A stretch of 64,000 nt of DNA from contig CAZQWH010000002.1 of NCBI GenBank assembly GCA_964597145.1, positions 177,232 through 241,231 on the forward strand, read 5' to 3'. Shown here piece by piece: positions 8,403 to 59,240 of the stretch; within the stretch, counting starts at the first letter, position 1, and every line of letters begins with the position of its first letter. The position numbers and the translations under genes are program-made. The notes beneath the pieces are model-generated. The model was not told where the DNA came from. It worked only from the letters and a program-made list of their open reading frames with translations, and made no database searches. The stretch comes from an uncultured Candidatus Saccharibacteria bacterium (GTDB lineage: Bacteria > Patescibacteriota > CAZHWT01).

Positions 8403-8543
8403 GGGCTAGGCAGTGGCGCCACTTTTATATCGAGCAAGTAGCGCAATGACGATTCTATAGTAACAGGAAACCAGGCAGGTTGAAAATGGCCGCCACTCCA
8501 AATCTACCCTAAATTAATGGTATAAAACAGAGTCATAAAAATT

Positions 8544-8569
8544 TAATTATATAATATATTATATAATTA
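8544..8569. repeat. Copy 1 of the 26-bp perfect palindrome taattatataatatattatataatta (followed by a partial extra half-copy)
   Basis: Exact string match to copies at 39859-39884 and 53866-53891; it is its own reverse complement. Confidence 0.9.
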
Positions 8570-8578
8570 ATTATATAA

Positions 8579-9274
8579 TTAATTTACAGGGTTAAGTTGA
8601 TCAATAAACAATTGAAGTTCAGAGGGTAGTGGTGCGTTAAATTCCATTTTTTGCTGTGAGGTAGGATGAAAAAATCCAAGCCGAGCAGCATGCAAAAACT
8701 GCCGCATGCCGGTTGTATCTTTGCGTCGACCATATACCCGGTCGCCTACCAGCGGGTAGCCCATGGCAAAGAGATGGACTCGAGCTTGGTGGGTTCGCCC
8801 TGTATACAGCTTTAAGCGCAGCCGACTAACTGGCTCGTCGTGGTATGTATAAACCTGCTCTCGCCACATCTCAGTTTTAGCCTCTCGTCCTCCATGGTTA
8901 GCCACCACAAATTTATACCCTAGGCTGGGATGGCGCAAAATAGGTGCATCTACTAGTGCATGGGCGTCTATAAATCGCCCCCATACCAATGCCATATATT
9001 CCTTCTCCGTCAGCCGGTGTGCAAATTGACGCTGCAACTCTTTTTGAGCCACCGCCGTTTTGGCCACCACCATCACTCCCGAGGTGTCTCGGTCTAATCG
9101 GTGCACTATCCCCTGCCGCTCTAGCCCAGGAACCTCAGGGAGTAATTCATCTAGGGTTGGTTCAGTGTGAGTATGACTTTTCTGTACAATAAGCCCGGCA
9201 GGCTTATGAATAACCAGGATCTCATCGTCTTGATATAAAATTGGCGGAAAGTCGATTTTTTCAGGATTGCTCAT
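8579..9274 (-). CDS. RluA-family pseudouridine synthase
   Basis: Catalytic motif HRLDRDTSGVMVVAKT. Confidence 0.85.
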   Translation of the reverse strand: MSNPEKIDFPPILYQDDEILVIHKPAGLIVQKSHTHTEPTLDELLPEVPGLERQGIVHRLDRDTSGVMVVAKTAVAQKELQRQFAHRLTEKEYMALVWGRFIDAHALVDAPILRHPSLGYKFVVANHGGREAKTEMWREQVYTYHDEPVSRLRLKLYTGRTHQARVHLFAMGYPLVGDRVYGRRKDTTGMRQFLHAARLGFFHPTSQQKMEFNAPLPSELQLFIDQLNPVN

Positions 9275-17113: not shown

Positions 17114-17200
17114 TGGTGCCGGAGAGAGGACTTGAACCTCCACGCCTTTAAGGGGCAACGGATTTTGAGTCCGTCGTGTCTACCATTCCACCACTCCGGC
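17114..17200 (-). tRNA. tRNA-Leu (anticodon CAA), type II with long variable arm, CCA encoded
   Basis: Reverse complement reads GCCGGAGTGGTGGAATGGTAGACACGACGGACTCAAAATCCGTTGCCCCTTAAAGGCGTGGAGGTTCAAGTCCTCTCTCCGGCACCA: 7-bp acceptor stem, T-loop GGTTCAAGTCC, anticodon loop CTCAAAA. 87 nt. Confidence 0.85.
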
Positions 17201-29444: not shown

Positions 29445-29480
29445 ATCAAAAAACACCTCAACTTCATGTTGAGGTGTTTT
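29445..29480 (-). terminator. Rho-independent terminator for the rpsF-ssb-rpsR operon (aacacctcaac / gttgaggtgtt, T6 on the minus strand)
   Basis: 11-bp stem with flanking A6/T4; likely bidirectional. Confidence 0.7.
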
Positions 29481-32694: not shown

Positions 32695-32879
32695 AGACTC
32701 GTATTATATCAGAAATATGGACGGGACAGCGCTACGGCCGTACCGTTAGTCAACGGCGGTGAATCTACACTACTACGATGCTGCCGTGAGCAACTTCGTG
32801 CACGAATAAGGAGAGTAGCACCCCTCTTGATCGAGCTCCAACCAAGATCCGCCAAAGAATAAAGGCGTATTGTAATTGC

Positions 32880-33707
32880 GTTCGCCGAACGGTTATCCCT
32901 TGACGTTCGACTTTATTTTTACTTTTTTTGGTTAGATTGAACTTGGTGACTGCCTCGAATTACTCAAAAGTTAGATGATCAATTTTCTTAAGATCACGTT
33001 GATAATTGGCCTGATCAAGAACAAACCTCATGTAGTCACGCGGTGATTTGAAATCCTCAAGAATACAGGATGTATTTATATTGTTAGTCGAACTGAGATT
33101 GCAGTAGTGGCGGAAAGACGACCATGGGTACTCAACAATCTCTCTATCATTACTGACTATGGATGCTGAGTATGGATTGAGATGGATGTAGCGGGAAACA
33201 TGTAGCAGTTGTTGACTTGTTTCTATATGGACGGCTTTAAATACACCTTCAAATACCGATCCTTTACGTTGGTGTTTTAAGTTGAATCGATGCGAGATGC
33301 TGCTTTGCACCATCCTCATATAATCGTATATACCATCATCAACTTCCTGCCGAACAAGCAGATGAAAATGATTTGACATAAGGCAATACGATACAAGCGA
33401 TATCCTACCCAGTGATTGTTGTCGCCTCATATCTATTGATACTCTTGAATCCAAGTTTTGAGCTAGATAGTACGATAGTCGTAGGGATTTGTCTGAGGAT
33501 AGGTAAAAATTCATTGCGCTTAGCGCCAGCTTATATTCTCTAGCACTAGTGAATATTTGTCGTCTATCAATCCCCCGATTAAAAATGTGATAGTAATTAC
33601 CCGTTATGAATGGTGGCTGCACAACGTATCCTCCTGAATGGCAGCTACATAACTGAGACTTATAGACTATAAACTATCGAACGTCAAGAGATAACCGTTC
33701 GGCGAAC
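32880..33707. mobile_element. Transposase-only unit: Y1 tyrosine-transposase (RAYT/IS200-like) gene between 31-bp inverted repeats with one mismatch (32880-32910 gttcgccgaacggttatcccttgacgttcga; 33677-33707)
   Basis: Inverted repeats read directly; each contains the hairpin GTTCG-C-CGAAC. Confidence 0.7.
32960..33622 (-). CDS. Y1 (HuH) tyrosine transposase, RAYT/IS200-like
   Basis: YHIFNRG..., HuH motif NHFHLLV, catalytic Tyr region SRYIHLNP. Confidence 0.75.
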   Translation of the reverse strand: MQPPFITGNYYHIFNRGIDRRQIFTSAREYKLALSAMNFYLSSDKSLRLSYYLAQNLDSRVSIDMRRQQSLGRISLVSYCLMSNHFHLLVRQEVDDGIYDYMRMVQSSISHRFNLKHQRKGSVFEGVFKAVHIETSQQLLHVSRYIHLNPYSASIVSNDREIVEYPWSSFRHYCNLSSTNNINTSCILEDFKSPRDYMRFVLDQANYQRDLKKIDHLTFE

Positions 33708-33885
33708 GTGGTTTCATTGAAAGTCAAAATCGCACAACTATTTAATTTCTAAGTTGTGTACATAACTTTCAAAAATTAAGCTGTCCACTATGACAGCTTA
33801 GAATTAACTCAAAGTATCTTATTAACCCCATACCCGCTCAATTTATATAAATACCTTAAAATATTAATGCCTGTTTCGTTGCTAT

Positions 33886-35466
33886 CTAGTTATCACCTAG
33901 GTAAACAATATATCCTACGTTCTTATTGCCCTTATTAGCTAATTTGAACCTCTCATAGACTTTAATTACAACCTTGCTGAGTAAATACGACTTCTGAGAC
34001 TCGACATTTCCAACTTCTTCTAGCCATTTTGGAGGCTTATTCAGAAAGGATTCCAGTAGCTCCTGATTATCTGAAAAGGCTTCTACTTTAATATCAAAAT
34101 TGCTTTTATTAGCTGGAGTTTCATCATCAACTGCAAGTGGAGAATAAATATGCAAAGTTCCAAGCTTCTCAGTATCTATTACTAGCACTTCAGTGCGCGA
34201 ACGCATATTCAATCTTGCTTCAAATACCGGAATCACCTTATTTTGATGCTTATAAATTCCTATAAAATTTGAAAGGCCTGCTTCCGGGTATAATGTTACA
34301 TCTAGCTGCCATTTCTCTGTAAATGATTCTATCTTCCCGTAGCCAAAAGTAGATCTACTTAGGACGATTAAAATTGGGTTACTACAAAGCCTTATCGCTC
34401 CATCGATTGATCCATCATACTTAATACTACTTTCGTATATTTCATTGAATAGTTGGATATTTTCACCTTGGGCAATATTTTGCCCAAAATTTTCGCCCCA
34501 GTTTACATATGATACATGCCAGTTATCAAAGAAAACTGCTTTGTCATCCACCCTTGATATACCTGCTCTAAGGACTTTCCCCTTATATTTCTTATTTGTT
34601 TCATCTTTCAATTTCTGGTAATAGTCAAAAAGTGACCTCATATAGGATGCTCTAGAAAACGCCTTCTGAACATCAATCTTGAAATCCTCTATCTTCTTTG
34701 TGCTTATTGGCTTTGACCGTTCAGTTTCCAGGATTAGCTTTTTTGCTTCGATTGCTAGGTTTTCCAAGGTTGGTATTACACTACTTCTCACTAATGACTT
34801 ATCTAAGCTCAACTCTCTAAATAATTGCTCGTCTTCTTCCATTCCAAGAGCGACTTGTTTTAAGCCTTCTATCGAGTACGTTATGTCACTTAGCTGGTCA
34901 GTATTAAAGCCAGATAAATTGAAAGTCGCATGGGGAGTTGTCACAAATGATCTCAGCATTAATACGATGAAATACTCTTTTACATAAATACCGCTTCCAT
35001 GATGTCCCTCCCAAAAATCAAAATCTCTCCTGCCCGAAATCCTTCTAAAATAGTAGTTAATAATGTCGGATAACGCTGATGGGTGTATATCGTCACTCAT
35101 CCAAATTGTATCGGAGTCAGCAGGCTGTTTGTAGTCAAGCATTAACTTTATGAACTTGTACTGCTTCTTAAATAGACAATATGCACCGACTGCAAATACT
35201 TGTGATCGTAAGTTTGTATATTTGTACAATTCCTCAGCATTGCGTGATAATTTACCTGCAACTTTAATAGCTTCCTGTTGTTTCTCCTGCAGCAAATATG
35301 GTTCGACTAGCTTTTTTAGTTCTGCAAGCTGCTTTTGCCAGTTTCTAAGCTCTTCAGCAGAATTAATAAGATTTAAGGACTTCTCTAAATCATTTGTTAC
35401 TTGCCTAATCTTTTCGTCGTCAGCCTGTTTTCCACGTCTCCTAAGATCACTACTTAGATCCCACAC
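33886..35466 (-). CDS. Hypothetical protein (526 aa), soluble, N-terminal coiled-coil; AT-rich island gene 4 of 4
   Basis: Long ORF in a roughly 32% GC region. No P-loop or known catalytic motif found by eye. Confidence 0.55.
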   Translation of the reverse strand: MWDLSSDLRRRGKQADDEKIRQVTNDLEKSLNLINSAEELRNWQKQLAELKKLVEPYLLQEKQQEAIKVAGKLSRNAEELYKYTNLRSQVFAVGAYCLFKKQYKFIKLMLDYKQPADSDTIWMSDDIHPSALSDIINYYFRRISGRRDFDFWEGHHGSGIYVKEYFIVLMLRSFVTTPHATFNLSGFNTDQLSDITYSIEGLKQVALGMEEDEQLFRELSLDKSLVRSSVIPTLENLAIEAKKLILETERSKPISTKKIEDFKIDVQKAFSRASYMRSLFDYYQKLKDETNKKYKGKVLRAGISRVDDKAVFFDNWHVSYVNWGENFGQNIAQGENIQLFNEIYESSIKYDGSIDGAIRLCSNPILIVLSRSTFGYGKIESFTEKWQLDVTLYPEAGLSNFIGIYKHQNKVIPVFEARLNMRSRTEVLVIDTEKLGTLHIYSPLAVDDETPANKSNFDIKVEAFSDNQELLESFLNKPPKWLEEVGNVESQKSYLLSKVVIKVYERFKLANKGNKNVGYIVYLGDN

Positions 35467-35540
35467 ACTTTTACTCTCAAGTGGACCGTGCCACCGTCAA
35501 TAAGAGATGATACAAAGTATATAAATAGCTTTTCCTGACC

Positions 35541-36830
35541 CTACCTAATAATTGACCTAAGATTTCCTAATAGGTATGCATCGAAGGTTGGTAGATATTC
35601 CAACCGAAACTCAGCCTCTGTCCTTCCAAACTTATCGAAAACTGTTTCGATATACCAATCAATAGCAGCAACATACATAGAAGATTTAGAATGCAGCGCC
35701 GAATCTTGAGCAATAGTACTCAACCGTCGCAATATTAGCTGAATATACAAGCCTCTGCCCTCTTGCTTGCTAAAATAAATTAGGAGCCTTATGAGGCTAT
35801 AAAGTGATTTTCTACTGATATCATCAGCTGCCTGCCCAGCATTGTACACACGAATAAATTGCTGGATTGTTGAGGTGTAGGTAATTAGATATCGATCAGG
35901 ATCATATCGTAAGCGTAGATTGGCTTCATCTGCATAGTTGATATCTTGGTCATCTGATGACAAATCGAGAGCATCATCTGAAGCATTTTCTTTGTTCGTT
36001 CGCTTCCCTGAACTCTTATGTTCCCCCATGTTATAGATTAAAAAGAAATCGTCACTTAGAATGAACGGCTCAATTTCCTCCAAGCTTCCTTCAGGTACAA
36101 CTAGCTTAGTTATACTCTCTAATTCTGGCAGACTCTCTTCTAGCAACGCCTTTAGGTTAGACCTCTCTGCTTCTGAGACAAGGATGTCACCGTAGCCCTC
36201 AATTAAATCTAAATAAACTTGCTTATTCCTTTTACGCAATGCAACTTGCAATGCTTTATTTATCTCTCGCTTTATCCTCTCCTGATCTAGCGTGTAGGTA
36301 TACAACCTATTTAAATACTGAGCGAAAGCTACCAGCCCTGCCAACAAGAGGATCAATAGCAAAAATGTGATTGCCCTTTGAACGTTCCCAGTCAAGCTAG
36401 CATCATTCAAAAATAGTCTTGATCCCAATGAGAGGCTGACAATTACCAAAAACAGCGGTATCAACCACTGCATTTGCCACTCGTTTAGCAGGCGCTTTCT
36501 AAGCACTCTGGTTCTGGCATAAGATCGCGAGACTTTATCTAGAGTTTCTATGCCAAGTGGCACCGCTATGGCAAGCACTACTCCAATAAATGCACCTAAA
36601 TCGGAGATAAATTGCAACTGTGGCCTGAATAATGCCTCCTTTAAGCCGCTTGCAAATTCTACAGTTATGAATTCAGGCCTAGCTATATCTGCTACTAGTA
36701 TCAGAAGTACTAAAAAATAGATAAGGATCGTTAGTAAAATAACAGAAACTAGTCGACCATAAAACGAAGCAATCACCCCTTTTGCGTAGCCAATAATTTT
36801 GTCAATCTCTAGCTTATTCATCTTCGTCAA
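35541..36830 (-). CDS. Hypothetical membrane protein (429 aa): about 5 N-terminal TM helices plus a roughly 230-aa cytoplasmic domain; island gene 3 of 4
   Basis: Hydrophobicity pattern; overlaps the upstream gene by 17 bp. Confidence 0.55.
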   Translation of the reverse strand: MTKMNKLEIDKIIGYAKGVIASFYGRLVSVILLTILIYFLVLLILVADIARPEFITVEFASGLKEALFRPQLQFISDLGAFIGVVLAIAVPLGIETLDKVSRSYARTRVLRKRLLNEWQMQWLIPLFLVIVSLSLGSRLFLNDASLTGNVQRAITFLLLILLLAGLVAFAQYLNRLYTYTLDQERIKREINKALQVALRKRNKQVYLDLIEGYGDILVSEAERSNLKALLEESLPELESITKLVVPEGSLEEIEPFILSDDFFLIYNMGEHKSSGKRTNKENASDDALDLSSDDQDINYADEANLRLRYDPDRYLITYTSTIQQFIRVYNAGQAADDISRKSLYSLIRLLIYFSKQEGRGLYIQLILRRLSTIAQDSALHSKSSMYVAAIDWYIETVFDKFGRTEAEFRLEYLPTFDAYLLGNLRSIIR

Positions 36831-37629
36831 CTCTGGCTTTTTCGCCCTCCAGTGGTGATGTTACATAGTCAATAAACTGATCTCCAATCTCTGTTGCAAG
36901 CGATTGGCCATATTGGAGAGGATTTCCTTTTGCAGTACTAACCGCTATGTAAAGTCCATCAAAGCTAGTTTCTTGACGCCCAGGCATGCGTGTAGCAATG
37001 TGCCCCATTTCTTCCAATGGGTATGACAATATCAGTCCATCACTCATTAAATCTCGGATATATTGGAGTTCAATATAATCCTCAATTACTATATCCGGAT
37101 GAGCCTTAAGTAGTTCAGTTTTAGGATGACCCACATGACGGGTAGTAAGGTTTCCCCAATCCCACCTAGGGGCATCATGATGAAGCTTAAGCATCCTTAT
37201 ATGTCCATACGTGAGTCGGTCAATATGGTTATAAAAAATGGCTTGCAGATCATCGTTAAGGGTTGAAGGCAATACGGTATTAACAACTGCATTCCGCAAC
37301 AAAGCTCGCTTTTCTTCAGCTGTGGTTCGCTGCGAAATACTTACAGCCTGCAATACTGCGGTTGTAAATTGCTCATTTTTTACAATATCTTCAATCGATA
37401 CTCTTCCTTGGCTTTTTAGCTCCTCTAAATCACTTAGCACTCCTTCAAGCAATACATTTGTCCGACGTTGCATAGGCGGAGTAAGATACTGCTGAAACAG
37501 TCCGCTAACAACATTGCCCGAACCAGGCAAGAGATGTAATTCAGAAAACTGGGACAATCCAGCAGATATCAATAACGCCATAAAGTCTTCTAAACTGGGC
37601 TTTGGCAATCTTTCGAGGCTATTCGACAT
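36814..37629 (-). CDS. Hypothetical soluble protein (271 aa); island gene 2 of 4
   Basis: ORF with no recognisable motif. Confidence 0.5.
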   Translation of the reverse strand: MSNSLERLPKPSLEDFMALLISAGLSQFSELHLLPGSGNVVSGLFQQYLTPPMQRRTNVLLEGVLSDLEELKSQGRVSIEDIVKNEQFTTAVLQAVSISQRTTAEEKRALLRNAVVNTVLPSTLNDDLQAIFYNHIDRLTYGHIRMLKLHHDAPRWDWGNLTTRHVGHPKTELLKAHPDIVIEDYIELQYIRDLMSDGLILSYPLEEMGHIATRMPGRQETSFDGLYIAVSTAKGNPLQYGQSLATEIGDQFIDYVTSPLEGEKARVDEDE

Positions 37630-37786
37630 AGACCCAATATACCACTGAGAATCAACTGCGATGATGGATTGCTTGGAATAGTCAATTCGCTGTTTACACA
37701 GCCTACTTAATCTTCGTCATCGATGATAAATTCTTCTGGAGTAGTACCCTTTTGAACTGTCGTAGACATTCTCAACCTCCCTTCTC

Positions 37787-38251
37787 TCACTTAAGTAAGA
37801 CCACTGCTATTACTGAAAGGATAAATAACACTGAAAGCAAGGCATAGGCGAGCTTGTTTAGACGATCAGTTGCCTCTGCATAGAAGTTAAATAGTTGAAC
37901 ACGTCGAGTCAGTTTGATGTTATACGGGCTATCACTAGTCTCCCCAGTGCTGTCACCCTTATCAATCATTTCATTCGGAGATTTTATATCCTTATATTCA
38001 TGCATCTTTATCTGATTCTCTCTAGATTTTTTAGCCGTAACTAAGCTTAAAAAATGAACCGCTAAAGTAATTATTCCTAAAACGATTCCAGCCTGCACTA
38101 AAATGTTCGTTAAATTAGAGCTGCTAGGTAATACAAAGAAGATTCCGGTGATAAAAACAGTTATCACTTGCGTTGCGAGGGTATCCAGCTGAGTTGAGCT
38201 TTCTCGATAACCTGAAATGGCGTTTTTTAACTTTTCGTTTTGGGCTTCCAT
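37787..38251 (-). CDS. Hypothetical small membrane protein (154 aa, 3 TM); island gene 1 of 4
   Basis: Hydrophobic segments at about 25-50, 55-75 and 130-152. Confidence 0.5.
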   Translation of the reverse strand: MEAQNEKLKNAISGYRESSTQLDTLATQVITVFITGIFFVLPSSSNLTNILVQAGIVLGIITLAVHFLSLVTAKKSRENQIKMHEYKDIKSPNEMIDKGDSTGETSDSPYNIKLTRRVQLFNFYAEATDRLNKLAYALLSVLFILSVIAVVLLK

Positions 38252-39299: not shown

Positions 39300-39858
39300 C
39301 GCTCTACCTGTTATATAAATAGCCACCTGTCTCTGTCAAGTCTTTCTACGAATTCCCTTAGGCTAATGGTTACTACCCAACGTCAATGGCCCTTTCTCAG
39401 CCAACGCACGTTCTCATGGCATGCTGCAATCGTATACTTGGTAAATATAAGCAGATAGTAGATAAACCGAAGTAATTAACTAATGGATAACGAATTGTCT
39501 AGGTTGGATGTAGGCATGAAAAATCCCGGGTTAACGTACCGGGAGCTCAGTCGAGCCTACGCTGAGTTTCCTCAGGTGCAATTCCTCGGGCCTTATTTAC
39601 CTTCAGGGGTTGTGCTAGAGGTATCCGATGATCGAGTGGTAGATACGGCAGTTGACCCTCCACCATCAAACAACACTAGAATTAGCAAGAACCATCCCCA
39701 GCTAAATTCTATGGTTGGATGCAGGTAGACAAAAACTATGTACACGAGTGCCATACGTCTCTCTCCTTATGTACAGAATCGTTGCTTTAAAACCGCTCCA
39801 AGCCGCATTATATACCACTCAGACAACATTCATAGACTTGTCATAAAATCACATATAT

Positions 39859-39884
39859 TAATTATATAATATATTATATAATTA
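39859..39884. repeat. Copy 2 of the 26-bp perfect palindrome taattatataatatattatataatta
   Basis: Exact match. Confidence 0.9.
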
Positions 39885-40238
39885 ATTGTATTTAACTCAG
39901 TATTATACTATCAACATGAAGCACGAAGGGGTTTTAAGATCTATCCACCTTTCACCTCTTTGGGTCGGCGAAGCTCACCTAATTTTAGGCCAAAGACAGC
40001 GGATGACCAAAAATCCTACCCTCCCCCAATCAATCCAAGTTAAAGCCAGGCAGAAAAGGCAGATTACCCATGGTAGCTCCTGCCATTAGATAGGTTAGAT
40101 GAGCTCATATATAACAACAGGAATCAATAAACGAGAGTCTATAGAGCAAAAGCTGGTTCAAGGTTGCGTAGCGCCAGAGAAAAGAGTAAGCAGGGTGCGG
40201 CAGTTGCCACACCCTGCAGTTTTTTGGGTCTTTCTCTC

Positions 40239-51303: not shown

Positions 51304-53493
51304 TTAACGTTTAAATAATTTACCAAATATACCCTTACGTGGTTGGGGTTCAGCTTCAAGCTGCGGCTCGTACCTCTGACTATCATTTTGAGGCTCTACA
51401 TGGCCTTCAGCGGCAGCTTGATCAGCGCCACCTAGATTAGTCACGTCTTCTAATGCTTGGCTGCTCTGAGCGGCTTCTGTCGCCCAGGATTGGTCGGGCG
51501 ATACTTCGTCGCTGATTGCATCCTCCGGCTGAGTCGTATTCGGCGCTAGCCCTGCTGACTTGGTCTGCTTATAAATCTGGTACAAACGCATAAATTCACT
51601 TGCGATCCGATTTTTAGCCTGCAAACGAGTCGCGTCACGTTTATGGTAATCAGAAATAGCATCCCAGAATACAGCACTGCCGGCAGCATAGCCAATCACT
51701 CCTGGAATAGTAGCGCAGGTCGTAATAGCTTCGGCAATTTGTTGGCTGTTAGCATCGTAATCAGAAATAATAATACCAACATTATCACGGCCGTCCTTAC
51801 GAATTTCCCCTATCAGCTTGCGATACACTGTTGGGTCCGTGAAGTGACCAAACATCCACACATCCGGCTCAATCCCCGCTTGGTGAAAGTCCTGAACTAT
51901 TTTAAACTGTAAACCTGGCAGAGTAGTTTTTTTGAACATCTCCTGACTGTCTTGCACTTTTTCTAGCTGGGCTTTATTTGGTCGAGTAATTATTTCCAAC
52001 AACAACTTATAGCCATGCTGGTGGCAATAATCACTTAATTGCTTTAATTTCTCTTGCTGAGCTTTACGCACTGCTAGGGTATCAGCTGGATTATAAAAAA
52101 CTAAACCTTTAACAAAAGTTGGTTTATACTTCTCAATATGGGATTGGAAATCATCAGGATAAGTAAATTCAAATGGTTGTTTACCGCTTTTTTCAACCGG
52201 TAAGATCACGGCCATATTCTCTCGGTTCGCCAAGTTAATAATTTCATGACCAAACTGTTCGTCTACCATAATTGCTGCGTCAGGCTGAGGTAGCCCCAAA
52301 GCGATAGCCTCTTTGAACGCTTCATAAACCACCATCTTATCATCAGAGAGATGCGCCGACTGTTCTGCATTGAGCGCATCCACCGGCAAATTGAAGCATT
52401 GTTTAGCTAGGGAAGTTCGGTGATCAAAGGGCAGGACGATTAATGGTTCATCGCAACCTAAGCTGACCAATAACGGATCACCTTCGGTTTCAATTTGCTG
52501 TCGGTCAAGTAGCCCTGGTTGTGCCCCAACTCTTCCTACCACCGACGCAGCATTTTTAGCTCCCCAATACATGGCAACTTGCAAAGATTTCCCAGCTAAA
52601 GCCGCCCCAATTACGCCAGTCGCAAAACTATCACCTGCTCCAGTACGTTCTACCACCGTCGCTGGAACTAAACCTTGCTCAAAACAACGGCCATCCTCGG
52701 CCCGAGCATAGGAGCCATTTTTACCATCGGTAATAACCACAATCTTCGGCCCCAAGGATGCCATTTCCTCCATCAAGGTCTGAACCGGCATTTTATCGTA
52801 GTTCTTCTTGGGTTGAGCACTTTTCAGCACGCTCTTAGCTTCTTCCAGGTTTAAAAACAAGATATGGGCATGCTTAAGAACATTCCAAAATACTTCACCT
52901 TTTTCCGACAACTGTCGCGTCCCTGGGTTAAAAGCAATTGGCACTTGATTGGCCAAAGCAAAGTCGAGCACCACTTGGTATGCTTTATCCCAGATACCGC
53001 CTAGACTGGTTAAATAAAGCAACCGAGTAGCTATACTGGCGTTAAAGTCAAACTCATGCTCATGAGCTGCATGCTGAGAAAACAGTGTCCTATCCCCCTT
53101 AAGATTCATGATGACTGATGATGAAGTGGGCTTACCTGGTGTTTGCAGAATAAGTTGAGTATTAACCTTCTCCTGAGTCAGATTTTTCAAGACTTGGTCG
53201 GCATAGAAATCATCACCCAATTCCACCATTAGGGCCACTTTATACCCCAGGCGCGATAAGCCCACCGAGACATTTTGGGCATTGCCTCCCATATGGACTT
53301 CCGAAGATTCTACCGTAATTTTTTCACCGTAACGAAAACAGAGCTCTTTAGTCTTTAAATTAAGACGCCATTTAGGGTCATTTTCAACCAGATTTAAAAA
53401 AGTATCGGCACTAGCACCGCCAACCGCTATTAGGTCAAATTGATTAGCTGGAAGTGATTGGTCTTCAGGGTTGTAGTCTGGGGCAGCATTCAT
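51304..53493 (-). CDS. PfkB-family sugar kinase fused to a roughly 280-aa C-terminal domain (long-IolC/DUF2090-like architecture) and a Gln/Glu/Pro-rich tail
   Basis: PfkB motifs (GGASADT..., RTGAGDSFATG); the C-terminal domain assignment is inferred. Confidence 0.55.
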   Translation of the reverse strand: MNAAPDYNPEDQSLPANQFDLIAVGGASADTFLNLVENDPKWRLNLKTKELCFRYGEKITVESSEVHMGGNAQNVSVGLSRLGYKVALMVELGDDFYADQVLKNLTQEKVNTQLILQTPGKPTSSSVIMNLKGDRTLFSQHAAHEHEFDFNASIATRLLYLTSLGGIWDKAYQVVLDFALANQVPIAFNPGTRQLSEKGEVFWNVLKHAHILFLNLEEAKSVLKSAQPKKNYDKMPVQTLMEEMASLGPKIVVITDGKNGSYARAEDGRCFEQGLVPATVVERTGAGDSFATGVIGAALAGKSLQVAMYWGAKNAASVVGRVGAQPGLLDRQQIETEGDPLLVSLGCDEPLIVLPFDHRTSLAKQCFNLPVDALNAEQSAHLSDDKMVVYEAFKEAIALGLPQPDAAIMVDEQFGHEIINLANRENMAVILPVEKSGKQPFEFTYPDDFQSHIEKYKPTFVKGLVFYNPADTLAVRKAQQEKLKQLSDYCHQHGYKLLLEIITRPNKAQLEKVQDSQEMFKKTTLPGLQFKIVQDFHQAGIEPDVWMFGHFTDPTVYRKLIGEIRKDGRDNVGIIISDYDANSQQIAEAITTCATIPGVIGYAAGSAVFWDAISDYHKRDATRLQAKNRIASEFMRLYQIYKQTKSAGLAPNTTQPEDAISDEVSPDQSWATEAAQSSQALEDVTNLGGADQAAAEGHVEPQNDSQRYEPQLEAEPQPRKGIFGKLFKR

Positions 53494-53865
53494 AGTATCT
53501 GTCGAAATAATATCTGATAGGTAGTAAGGTTATACTACTGTTTTTTACCATCTCTGGCAAGCTTAAGGCCCATGGCTGACAGAGTCGGGCAGCATGCGGT
53601 TCTGCAAATGTATCCGCGTGCTGCGAATTTTATTCGTCATCCCTGCAAAGATCTTCAACCTTGCAGCAAAACCTCAGTCTCAGACTCGAAGATCAAGAAC
53701 TAGAGTCGTTATAGCTAGCTCAATACCTTAATTCCTACCTTCAAGGGAATTAAACAATCATAAAATTTGTTCCACTTACGACTTACCATACAGCCCTCCG
53801 CCAGCCCATCCAATAGAATCATTACTCAGTTGCTATTGCTGATATTTTACTGAGTTAATTTAATG

Positions 53866-53891
53866 TAATTATATAATATATTATATAATTA
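53866..53891. repeat. Copy 3 of the 26-bp perfect palindrome taattatataatatattatataatta
   Basis: Exact match. Confidence 0.9.
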
Positions 53892-53897
53892 AAATTT

Positions 53898-53935
53898 AAC
53901 ACCTCGGGAGTGTTAATCCCAGTACACCATTACAG
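53898..53935 (+). repeat. Solo REP-like hairpin repeat (taacacctcgggagtgttaatcccagtacaccatta), homologous to the terminal repeats of the 58.4-59.2 kb transposase unit
   Basis: About 85% identity to 58353-58388; hairpin ACACC-tcggg-GGTGT. Confidence 0.65.
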
Positions 53936-54417
53936 CCAGATCCTCAATCACACCTACCTGGCTTTCGTCTATTGTATCTAGAAGAGCAGCCCCTTACATA
54001 TCACCACAGTTTTCTCAGGGCTAATTTACATATTGAAATAGCATTCTTATGCTCTGAAGTCAGAAGGACGCGTATTCGTTCATACCCATTTGGAATAAAT
54101 ACACCATCCCAACCAAGCATTTCAGACTTAAGGTGGCCGTCAATTATGTCCCCTATCATTCCTTCGGCTTAGCTTGAATACGTTGCCATTTTGATAAGCA
54201 CCACAGTCTTAGCAATCGTTACCCTATTCTGCTCATCATCGAACACAGTTACCGTACCTAGTGATAACCTTCAAGCGCTTTAGATTTGATTGCTTCTTCA
54301 ATGGCCCAAGTTCAAGCAGAACCAGCTTAATGTACTCCTGTTCCAAGCCAAGTAGGCGCTTTATACTCCCCTCAGCTTGTTGGTATTCGTAATGGTAAAA
54401 TGGGCTAACTTTTTTAG

Positions 54418-58309: not shown

Positions 58310-58352
58310 AAATACAAGCTTATCATATTATCAAATCCCCATCAGGGATGAT

Positions 58353-59201
58353 ATTACACCTCGGGGGTGTTTATCTCAGTACACCATTTTTTATATGCTC
58401 CATCCGACTCCCGGCATTATCCAGGATAGCCTCAACTATCTACGTCTATGAACAATTTCTGATTGTTGTGAAGGGATTTTTGATAGTCCGCATTGTCAAG
58501 TACAAACTCACGGTATGACTGGGTGGTTTCAAATGAGCTCAAAATACTCCCTGAGTCCACGAGCGGACCGTCATCTTGCCTATGCACCATCGATGACATT
58601 GAAGACCACTTAAAATCACAAATATCTTCTTGATGACGAACAATTCCTGAGGTGAATGGATTTAAATGAATATAGCGAGAGGTGTGGAGAAGTTGCCGTT
58701 CTGATTCCACTTTCACTGTTCTAAAAGCGCTCTCAAATAATGGTCCTCTGCGATGGTGATAGTCGTTAAAGTATCGAACAAAACTATTTTGGAATCTACC
58801 AATAAATATACTTATACCATTCTCTGCTTCTTGTCTGAGCAAGAAATGGAAGTGGTTGGGCATAAAGCAATAACTTAGTATGCTCACCAGCACTGGAGAA
58901 TATTTTAAAGTCCTGAGCGTATGATTTTTTGAGTTGTGTGTCTGGGAAAGAAAGTGCGAAAGTCGGATCGGCGGATTTGCATACCGATAATATTCAACAG
59001 CCTTCAAGGCCCTACTGCATTCTCTCGAACTAGTAAATATAGGCTGACGCTCAATGGATCGATTGAACGTGTGATAGACGTCGCCATTATGTAAAAGCGT
59101 TTTTCGATACGGCATACCAGACCTTTCTGGGCAGCATCGTATGTTGCTTATACCAGCCAGCATGAAATGGTGTCAAGAGATAAACACCCCCGAGGTGTAA
59201 T
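58353..59201. mobile_element. Second transposase-only unit: Y1/RAYT-like gene between perfect 25-bp inverted REP-like repeats (attacacctcgggggtgtttatctc)
   Basis: 58353-58377 and its exact reverse complement at 59177-59201. Confidence 0.75.
58432..59163 (-). CDS. Y1 (HuH) tyrosine transposase, RAYT/IS200-like; diverged paralogue of 32960..33622
   Basis: YHTFNRS..., PNHFHFLL (HuH), SRYIHLNP (Tyr). Confidence 0.75.
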   Translation of the reverse strand: MLAGISNIRCCPERSGMPYRKTLLHNGDVYHTFNRSIERQPIFTSSRECSRALKAVEYYRYANPPIRLSHFLSQTHNSKNHTLRTLKYSPVLVSILSYCFMPNHFHFLLRQEAENGISIFIGRFQNSFVRYFNDYHHRRGPLFESAFRTVKVESERQLLHTSRYIHLNPFTSGIVRHQEDICDFKWSSMSSMVHRQDDGPLVDSGSILSSFETTQSYREFVLDNADYQKSLHNNQKLFIDVDS

Positions 59202-59240
59202 ATATGTATGCTAATTATTGAATAGAAAAGATTGATATCC

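Follow-up and report, generated by a model that had tools for sequence, protein, structure and literature searches.

The 64-kb stretch of DNA analysed here (the window) is core chromosomal sequence of a Saccharibacteria (TM7)-like bacterium, with ≈45% G+C and with dnaB, prfA, S6-ssb-S18, ychF, cysS, recR, ybaB, dnaX, and pth among its genes. It contains a 26-mer, TAATTATATAATATATTATATAATTA, that equals its own reverse complement and occurs exactly at three positions (copies 1, 2, and 3; Table 1), all of them intergenic. This palindrome and the sequence beside it are the subject of this report, together with the repetitive extragenic palindromic (REP)-like repeats and REP-associated tyrosine transposase (RAYT)-like genes of the same window. 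An earlier note on this DNA had described the 26-bp perfect palindrome and its three exact intergenic copies and had judged them to be far beyond chance. Both statements were borne out: the positions are exact, and 100 dinucleotide-preserving shuffles of the window yielded no match to the 26-mer even at 3 mismatches, so that 0 copies are expected. No further copy is present in the window at ≤7 mismatches, save for a half-copy that overlaps copy 1. The perfect palindrome extends to 28 nt at copy 1 (8543-8570) and to 30 nt at copy 2 (39857-39886), and TTATATAA boxes recur at a 12-nt period, two in each 26-mer and three at copy 1.

Copy 1 is positioned 10 nt past the stop codon of an RluA-type pseudouridine synthase gene and 142 nt upstream of the start of the Kef gene (8402), in agreement with the ≈140 bp, and with the extra half-copy, given in the earlier note. 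Copy 3 is separated by 2 nt from a 38-nt REP-like repeat and by ≈7 nt from the hairpin stem of that repeat; the earlier note had given 7 bp between palindrome and REP. Copies 1 and 3 lie between tandem genes, and copy 2 lies between genes in a convergent-type arrangement.

We conclude that the palindrome copies are real, because independent assemblies carry the palindrome; an assembly artefact, which had been raised as a way in which the observation could fail, is thereby dismissed. The source organism was found in >10 Logan assemblies and is abundant in samples of the SRR118438xx series, and the sequence of copy 3 is identical across three independent ones (L026-L028). At copies 1 and 2, contigs from >10 samples run up to the palindrome and stop inside it or close by, at copy 1 from either side, and four relatives confirm by their synteny the RluA-Kef adjacency that spans copy 1. 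Independent support from the left side is missing only for the join across copy 2. Since many short-read contigs end at or near the palindrome, the repeat also has a practical meaning, in that it marks spots where assemblies of Saccharibacteria metagenome-assembled genomes fragment.

Table 1. Positions in the window of the palindrome copies, their arms, and the REP-like repeats and RAYT-like genes
Feature	Position	Strand	Remarks
Arm of copy 1	8519-8543	-	AATTTTTATGACTCTGTTTTATACC; box ATGACTCTGT at 8527-8536
Palindrome, copy 1	8544-8569	-	Strand set by the arm
Half-copy of 12 nt abutting copy 1	8570-8581		ATTATATAATTA; makes the third TTATATAA box
Second RAYT-like gene (32960-33622) with inverted 32-nt repeats (32879-32910, 33677-33708)	32879-33708	-	Different hairpin, same box: TTATCCCTTGAC / TTATCTCTTGAC
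Palindrome, copy 2	39859-39884	+	
Arm of copy 2	39885-39909	+	ATTGTATTTAACTCAGTATTATACT; box TTAACTCAGT at 39892-39901; then TATTAT, TATACT (-10-like), and ATG at 39916
Arm of copy 3	53841-53865	-	CATTAAATTAACTCAGTAAAATATC; box at 53849-53858, then -10-like TAAAAT
Palindrome, copy 3	53866-53891	-	
Solo REP-like repeat	53894-53931	+	87% identical to the left repeat at 58351-58388; GC hairpin and box TAATCCCAGTAC; back-to-back with copy 3
RAYT-like Y1 transposase gene (58432-59163) with inverted 39-nt REP-like repeats (58351-58389, 59165-59203)	58351-59203	-	GC hairpin, then TTATCTCAGTAC or TTATCTCTTGAC

An oriented repeat of palindrome and arm

Six copies were aligned in register with the palindrome. 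Homology between them extends beyond the palindrome on one side only, over a 25-nt arm, in which mean pairwise identity is 57%, compared to 34% in the opposite flank; none of 5000 shuffles reached the arm value. The left flank tends to read AAAT/AAATT. Arm columns T9, C12, C14, and G16 are invariant. A box, TTAWCYCWGT, occupies arm positions 8-17 and thus starts 7 nt off the palindrome, with no insertion or deletion between palindrome and box in any of the six copies. It reads TTAACTCAGTA in copies 2 and 3, TTATCTCTGTT in two of the copies introduced below (L002 and L009), and TTAACCCAGA in a third (L010), and its CT is conserved in five of the six arms. A TAWWAT-like hexamer follows the box at arm positions 17-23. 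A profile of palindrome plus arm gave ≈42 bits in the correct orientation, 21-26 bits in the wrong orientation, and 13-21 bits for unrelated AT-rich matches, and nhmmer profiles detected neither solo arms nor degenerate copies in the window and all of the loci collected. The unit of repetition is a palindrome of 26-32 nt with an arm of ≈25 nt on one side, ≈51 nt in total, and it is oriented: copies 1 and 3 are on the minus strand, copy 2 on the plus strand. The earlier note had overlooked this asymmetry, with a 25-nt arm that is homologous on one side only. Among the three window copies, the palindromes show differences at 0 of 26 positions while the arms differ by 32-36%, which implies a much stronger constraint on the palindrome core than on the arm.

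A fourth copy is located past the right end of the window. It was found in a contig (L046) that is 100% identical to the final 5.6 kb of the window and reaches 2.65 kb beyond it, where the palindrome at 1002-1027 reads TT-ATTATATAATATATTATATAAT-AC (≈1.6 kb outside the window, or ≈65.63 kb if the window numbering is continued). The 22-nt core of this copy is exact and its change is confined to the outer 2+2 nt; its arm is degenerate and shifted by 4 nt. Counted from the end of the 22-nt core, the box begins after 9 nt in the six aligned copies and after 13 nt in copy 4. A 129-aa gene with a Shine-Dalgarno sequence and no family match starts 60 nt downstream of the copy, and several short-read contigs break at this place. 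The source organism therefore has four copies, three exact and one diverged, in ≈66 kb, all intergenic.

A search of metagenomes with the exact 26-mer returned 11 contigs, eight of which are unrelated and very AT-rich or eukaryote-like. The remaining three (L002, L009, and L010, from a single metagenome) share the one-sided flank. They represent a second Saccharibacteria lineage, in which palindrome and arm are present together at non-orthologous sites, and the DgkA protein of L009 is 65% identical to DgkA of the window. L010 resembles copy 2 in its convergent-type setting, and L002, L009, and copy 4 are found in promoter or divergent regions. A viral scan with the 26-mer matched two giant-virus contigs only, both with unrelated flanks; one of the two is also among the eight AT-rich contigs. 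Because the bare 26-mer arises alone in AT-rich DNA, homology rests on the palindrome plus its flank and not on the 26-mer alone. The exact 26-mer had no match in a set of one genome per GTDB species, and BLAST of the element against phages and plasmids gave no relevant match. No RNA family was returned by Rfam, whether at the gathering threshold or, around copies 2 and 3, at permissive ones, and a tRNA scan of the window found only tRNA-Leu at 17114 and no tRNA over the palindrome. The literature on repeats, promoters, and motifs of Saccharibacteria/Patescibacteria yielded no published description of such a repeat.

Absence at orthologous sites in relatives

The genes on either side of copies 1 and 3 are also neighbours in relatives. 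In relatives whose Kef proteins are 89% (L022/L023), 75% (L024), 68% (L025), and 60% (L013) identical to that of the window, gene order is kept and the RluA-Kef spacer contains no palindrome. A proximal promoter-like TGnTACTAT ≈60 nt before the Kef ATG is common to the window and these relatives. The Metallophos-PfkB spacer of one further relative (L030-L033; PfkB 78% identical) is 85 nt long and lacks the palindrome, compared to 925 nt in the window, where this spacer accommodates, besides the palindrome and the solo REP, part of a Ham1/RdgB gene and ≈370 nt of DNA without assignment. Window and relative share a proximal PfkB promoter-like sequence, TAGTATAAC. The conserved Kef and PfkB promoters are both nearer to their genes than the palindrome is, and separate from it. 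A weak inverted arm-like match in a relative's RluA-Kef spacer (E = 23) was not used as evidence. As an observation on the spacer that holds copy 3, a 52-aa open reading frame (ORF) at 54001-54159 (-), possibly continuing to ≈54346, aligns with Ham1/RdgB over the C-terminal part alone (Pfam positions 135-183 of 186) and looks like a decayed gene.

The second lineage provided a further comparison. In L055, whose DgkA is 74% identical to that of L009, the ybeY and dgkA genes are adjacent, with a 127-nt spacer and without the palindrome. The same interval in L009 is enlarged by ≈690 nt of inserted DNA, in which a 157-aa gene is accompanied by the arm and, at the insertion edge, by the palindrome. 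No palindrome is present near the window dgkA. Altogether, ≈55 kb of relatives' sequence contained no copy, an outcome with a chance of ≈0.04 at the density of the window. A separate feature of these loci is that dgkA is preceded by a conserved TGcTACAAT in L009 (2029-2054) and L055 (2089-2114), just 6 nt before the ATG, which suggests, as read from the sequence, that dgkA mRNA may be leaderless in these Saccharibacteria.

Absence from the orthologous spacers of relatives implies that the repeat family is patchy and lineage-specific, and its copies are sited in variable DNA. Moreover, since the relatives lack the palindrome at Kef and PfkB and have promoters separate from it, the idea that it is a conserved operator for these genes is not supported. 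Of the roles offered in the earlier note, the dimeric-regulator operator thus lacks support in this conserved form, and the conservation in related genomes that the note looked for was absent at the orthologous sites of four relatives (Kef) and of one (PfkB). The element looks more like a dispersed lineage-specific repeat than a conserved gene switch.

Origin and possible role of the repeat

The two RAYT-like genes of the window are paralogous and 40% identical to each other. Both match Y1_Tnp above the cut-off, and their NCBIfam REP_Tyr_transpos score of 48 bits is under the 80-bit cut-off. In all five REP-like repeats, a similar box (TTATCTCAGTAC, TTATCTCTTGAC, TTATCCCTTGAC, or TAATCCCAGTAC) stands immediately 3' of the hairpin; at the two RAYT-like genes, whose hairpins differ, the box has the common form TTATCYC(TTG/AG). 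The boxes of the palindrome arms and of the REP repeats are on the same hairpin side and the same strand, and alternate between CTC and CCC in the same way. As a separate point, the 32960-33622 gene has in its upstream repeat a -35-like TTGACG followed after 17 nt by TATAAG, and then GGAGG and a GTG start codon.

RAYTs act on REPs that include perfect palindromes, with a conserved tag by the hairpin and cleavage at a CT located 5' or 3' of it (PMC8266576; PMC3733652). The repeat described here resembles these REP/RAYT systems ('REPtrons', including the group 3 perfect palindromes; PMC8266576, PMC3733652) in being a small palindromic intergenic repeat with several copies, REPs being 20-40 bp in length, in having a conserved unpaired motif with a CT at a fixed place beside the hairpin, and in its patchy, lineage-specific distribution. 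A hairpin, an unpaired motif at fixed distance, and a CT are likewise the architecture of the substrates of RAYT and IS200/IS605 transposases. In addition, the same genome encodes two RAYT-like genes with a similar box, and one copy is back-to-back with a solo REP.

We tentatively favour the interpretation that the element is a non-autonomous dispersed repeat of REP-like or MITE-like type (MITE: miniature inverted-repeat transposable element), on which an enzyme of HUH/RAYT type probably acts while it is folded as a hairpin, and which is possibly endowed with an outward promoter; as a whole, this account seems to us to fall somewhat short of an even chance. Copies would be gained in intergenic DNA, lineage by lineage. 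The palindrome would fold into a hairpin on single-stranded DNA, and an HUH/Y1 enzyme of the RAYT (TnpA-REP) type would bind this hairpin and cut at the CT-containing box at a fixed distance 3' of it. Candidates for this enzyme are the two RAYT-like paralogues of the window and a third one that would lie at another place in the genome. The parts recognised by protein, palindrome and fixed-offset box, would be held constant while the rest of the arm drifts; that both are constant would be explained because a protein, most plausibly one of HUH/RAYT type acting on a folded single strand, must recognise both. As a by-product, the -10-like hexamer of the arm may allow inserted copies to fire transcription outward. 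The comparisons show the family itself, its asymmetry, its turnover, and the unequal constraint on palindrome and arm; movement by an HUH enzyme, cutting at the box, and promoter activity are inferred.

Several observations weigh against the HUH/RAYT interpretation. The tag of REPs is a conserved unpaired GTAG or CGTC directly beside the palindrome (PMC3733652, PMC8266576), and no such tag occurs in the palindrome repeat or in the repeats that flank the RAYT-like genes. The box is 7 nt from the palindrome, compared to its place directly at the foot of the REP hairpins, and the AT-only, loop-less stem of 26-32 nt differs from the GC-rich stems of 5-15 bp of REPs. REPs go with a cognate RAYT gene that they flank in inverted orientation; in the window and the loci collected, no gene for a RAYT or other transposase was seen to be flanked by the palindrome, and both RAYT-like genes in the window have GC-hairpin flanks. 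Because neither the GTAG tag nor a palindrome-flanked RAYT was found in these data, we do not call the repeat a member of the REPs. The association with the REP/RAYT system that the earlier note had put forward is thus upheld only with respect to the shared TTAWCYCWG-type box 3' of the hairpin and to the solo REP that copy 3 abuts. Likeness of the box between arm and REP repeats is short and was noticed post hoc; the arm profile gives a RAYT repeat just 3.2 bits (E = 83), and a loose TTAWCYCWG pattern has 12 matches in the window compared to 4.7 expected. A rough post hoc estimate of the chance of a box-type match right beside a REP hairpin is 0.004-0.03. Three of the six copies were obtained second-hand by an exact-match search, so the identity of these three is partly an ascertainment effect. 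Finally, no clean junction between empty and filled sites and no target duplication can be defined, because the flanks are AT-only and the spacers of the relatives are too diverged. Compared to the closest relative, copy 1 corresponds to a net gap of 38 nt, equal to palindrome plus half-copy, for which alternative alignments in the AT-rich diverged spacer are equally good, and symmetric AT/TA extensions beside the palindrome are indistinguishable from a lengthening of the palindrome itself. No empty site and no presence-absence polymorphism was seen in the population sampled.

REPs are mostly downstream of ORFs, between unidirectional or convergent genes; the placement of the present repeat is mixed, with several copies in promoter regions. 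The repeat also recalls the Correia elements of Neisseria, MITEs with outward promoters, which are likewise short, non-autonomous intergenic repeats, present or absent at orthologous sites, with -10-like sequences facing their neighbours. Correia elements are 100-150 bp long, with 26-bp terminal inverted repeats and a TA duplication. By contrast, the present element is ≈51 nt in total, its inverted halves abut, and neither a duplication nor a parent insertion sequence (IS) is demonstrable.

An outward promoter would be central, and not a by-product, if the repeat were a portable operator and promoter module. The palindrome would then be the site of a dimeric protein (in a class II activator position or a -35-overlapping repressor position) or an AT-rich UP-like element, and would serve the gene downstream of the arm; we consider this, the main rival, unlikely, though worth keeping in view. 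A -10-like hexamer is present 16-18 nt from the palindrome on the arm side in four of seven copies (TATTAT, TAAAAT, TATAAT, and TAAAAT), a TGn precedes the hexamer in three copies, and a full extended -10 is found in L002 (TGtTATAAT) and L009 (TGtTAAAAT), the extended -10 being also the type of the native promoters here (TGnTACTAT of Kef; TGcTACAAT of dgkA). Hexamers are poorer in copies 1 and 4 and in L010, and the spacing in copy 4 is off by 4 nt. Five of the seven copies face the start of a gene on their own strand, at a distance of 60-373 nt; the genes concerned (Kef, PfkB, the 129-aa gene, DUF1801, and the 157-aa gene) have no common function. The other two, copy 2 and L010, carry, exactly 31 nt away from the palindrome, an ATGAAG whose spacing would be compatible with a leaderless start; the short ORFs that begin there are unrelated and were not relied on, and both copies aim into the 3' end of a convergent gene. 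With its centre ≈42 nt upstream of the predicted transcription start, the palindrome resembles class II operators (CRP/FNR-type, near -41.5) and UP elements in being a 22-26 bp AT-rich palindromic site that replaces a missing -35. An exact palindrome beside drifting arms in two lineages is what a conserved protein-DNA contact would be expected to leave. However, no -35 element is present, the last six bases of the palindrome being TAATTA; sites of one regulator normally vary, whereas the copies here are identical, with no near-match in 64 kb; the A- and T-tracts of UP elements are lacking; and promoter logic does not explain the invariant C12, C14, and G16. No gene for a transposase, recombinase, or regulator adjoins any copy. 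The palindrome is, moreover, absent at the orthologous promoters of close relatives, where Kef and PfkB have conserved proximal promoters of their own. Of the promoter or UP-like role suggested in the earlier note, promoter-like features are borne out, namely the -10-like hexamers and the five copies that face gene starts.

The perfect inverted halves with nothing between them could alternatively be the abutted 13-nt terminal inverted repeats of an unseen IS, making the repeat a minimal IS-derived MITE, or could be half-sites next to which a tyrosine or serine recombinase places gene cassettes; either origin appears improbable. Consistent with it, half-copies differ in number, with 12 nt more at copy 1 and a near-copy in tandem in L006, the palindrome of L009 is at the edge of a one-gene insertion, and copies 2 and 3 occupy the two largest non-coding, lineage-specific stretches of the window. 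However, no half-site exists outside the copies in the window or the collected loci, so these contain no full-length IS, and the conserved arm is one-sided, without the inverted partner that a MITE should have. As for recombination, the 26 nt can be read as 12-2-12 (hix-type) or as 11-4-11 (dif-like but for the centre), yet the 4-nt centre between the TTATA/TATAA arms is unlike that of Xer-type sites, gene order across copies 1 and 3 is the same in relatives, with no inversion or deletion between copies, and no recombinase gene stands beside the copies, the nearest integrase gene being ≈8 kb outside the window. A cassette-junction site also figures in a still more doubtful proposal, that of an undescribed mobile unit of the candidate phyla radiation (CPR) with the palindrome as its recognition core, the other form of which is a new HUH substrate in which an AT-only palindrome of 26-32 bp replaces the GC hairpin. 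In its cassette-junction form, such a unit would deliver accessory genes with a ready-made operator and promoter by an attC-like logic that, to our knowledge, is not known in Saccharibacteria; the L009 palindrome that edges a 690-nt single-gene insertion and the lineage-specific small ORFs that adjoin copies 2 to 4 provide a context for it. Least probable of all, and by our estimate very much so, is a purely structural or transcript-level element without mobility, that is, a bidirectional intrinsic terminator or a cruciform. Copy 1 does follow a stop codon by 10 nt, and the palindrome is often preceded by A-rich and followed by T-rich sequence. Its hairpin is weak, however (-5.2 kcal/mol as RNA, -4.7 as DNA), and with flanks does not clearly outdo shuffles; the genes here rely on GC-rich terminators of the canonical kind (e.g. 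40217-40190); L002, L009, and copy 4 are in promoter regions and not after genes; and neither the conserved arm nor the lineage-specific distribution would be explained.

Known classes of site were also considered as identities of the palindrome. The dif sites of Xer recombinases have an 11-6-11 layout with a 6-nt centre and occur once per replicon; dif was rejected on account of the 4-nt centre and the four copies in 66 kb. The hix sites are 12-2-12 and flank an invertible segment with an invertase gene; a hix-type site was rejected given the unchanged synteny and the lack of an invertase gene nearby. A parS centromere is a palindrome conserved in sequence and position among relatives, and parS was rejected given the absence of the element from ≈55 kb of relatives' sequence, orthologous sites included, and from the set of one genome per GTDB species. 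An intrinsic terminator has a stable G+C-rich stem and then a U-tract, and was rejected in view of the AT-only stem of -5.2 kcal/mol and the canonical GC-rich terminators elsewhere.

Hardly anything has been charted of the mobile DNA and regulatory signals of Saccharibacteria and other CPR bacteria, whose genomes are tiny and tightly packed. The presence of this repeat and of RAYT-like genes in one genome provides a concrete case in which to study the spread of short repeats through reduced genomes, and also whether such repeats seed promoters or mark spots where lineage-specific DNA accumulates.

Other features of the window and its neighbourhood

The interval 33886-38251 has a low GC content (0.38-0.41 compared to ≈0.45) and four consecutive minus-strand ORFs (526, 429, 271, and 154 aa), none with a match in Pfam. 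A RAYT-like gene borders the interval on one side, a methyltransferase gene and copy 2 on the other, and it may be an acquired island. On the side of copy 2 opposite its arm, ≈105 nt away, a 53-aa hydrophobic ORF at 39593-39754 (-) has a strong AAGGAG Shine-Dalgarno sequence and an extended -10, TGgTATATAAT, upstream; it may encode an unannotated small membrane protein. To the left of the window, a contig (L017) contains a different perfect palindrome of 24 nt, TCATTTTAGCTATAGCTAAAATGA, at 8561-8584, with a 261-aa gene on one side and the gene of a tyrosine integrase on the other; the halves of this palindrome resemble what we take to be KorB/ParB-type TTTAGC...GCTAAA sites.

Canonical terminator hairpins are found at 29450-29480 and 40190-40217 (e.g. 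AAAACACCTCAACTTCATGTTGAGGTGTTTT), flanked by an A-tract and a T-tract, and are of the ordinary, partly bidirectional intrinsic type. The PfkB gene (51304-53493) encodes a 729-aa fusion of a PfkB sugar kinase with DUF2090 that has a long, low-complexity, acidic, Q-rich tail, and six homologues of this fusion were found at E ≤ 1e-80 among 8000 candidates scored from a collection of 5.8 billion proteins.

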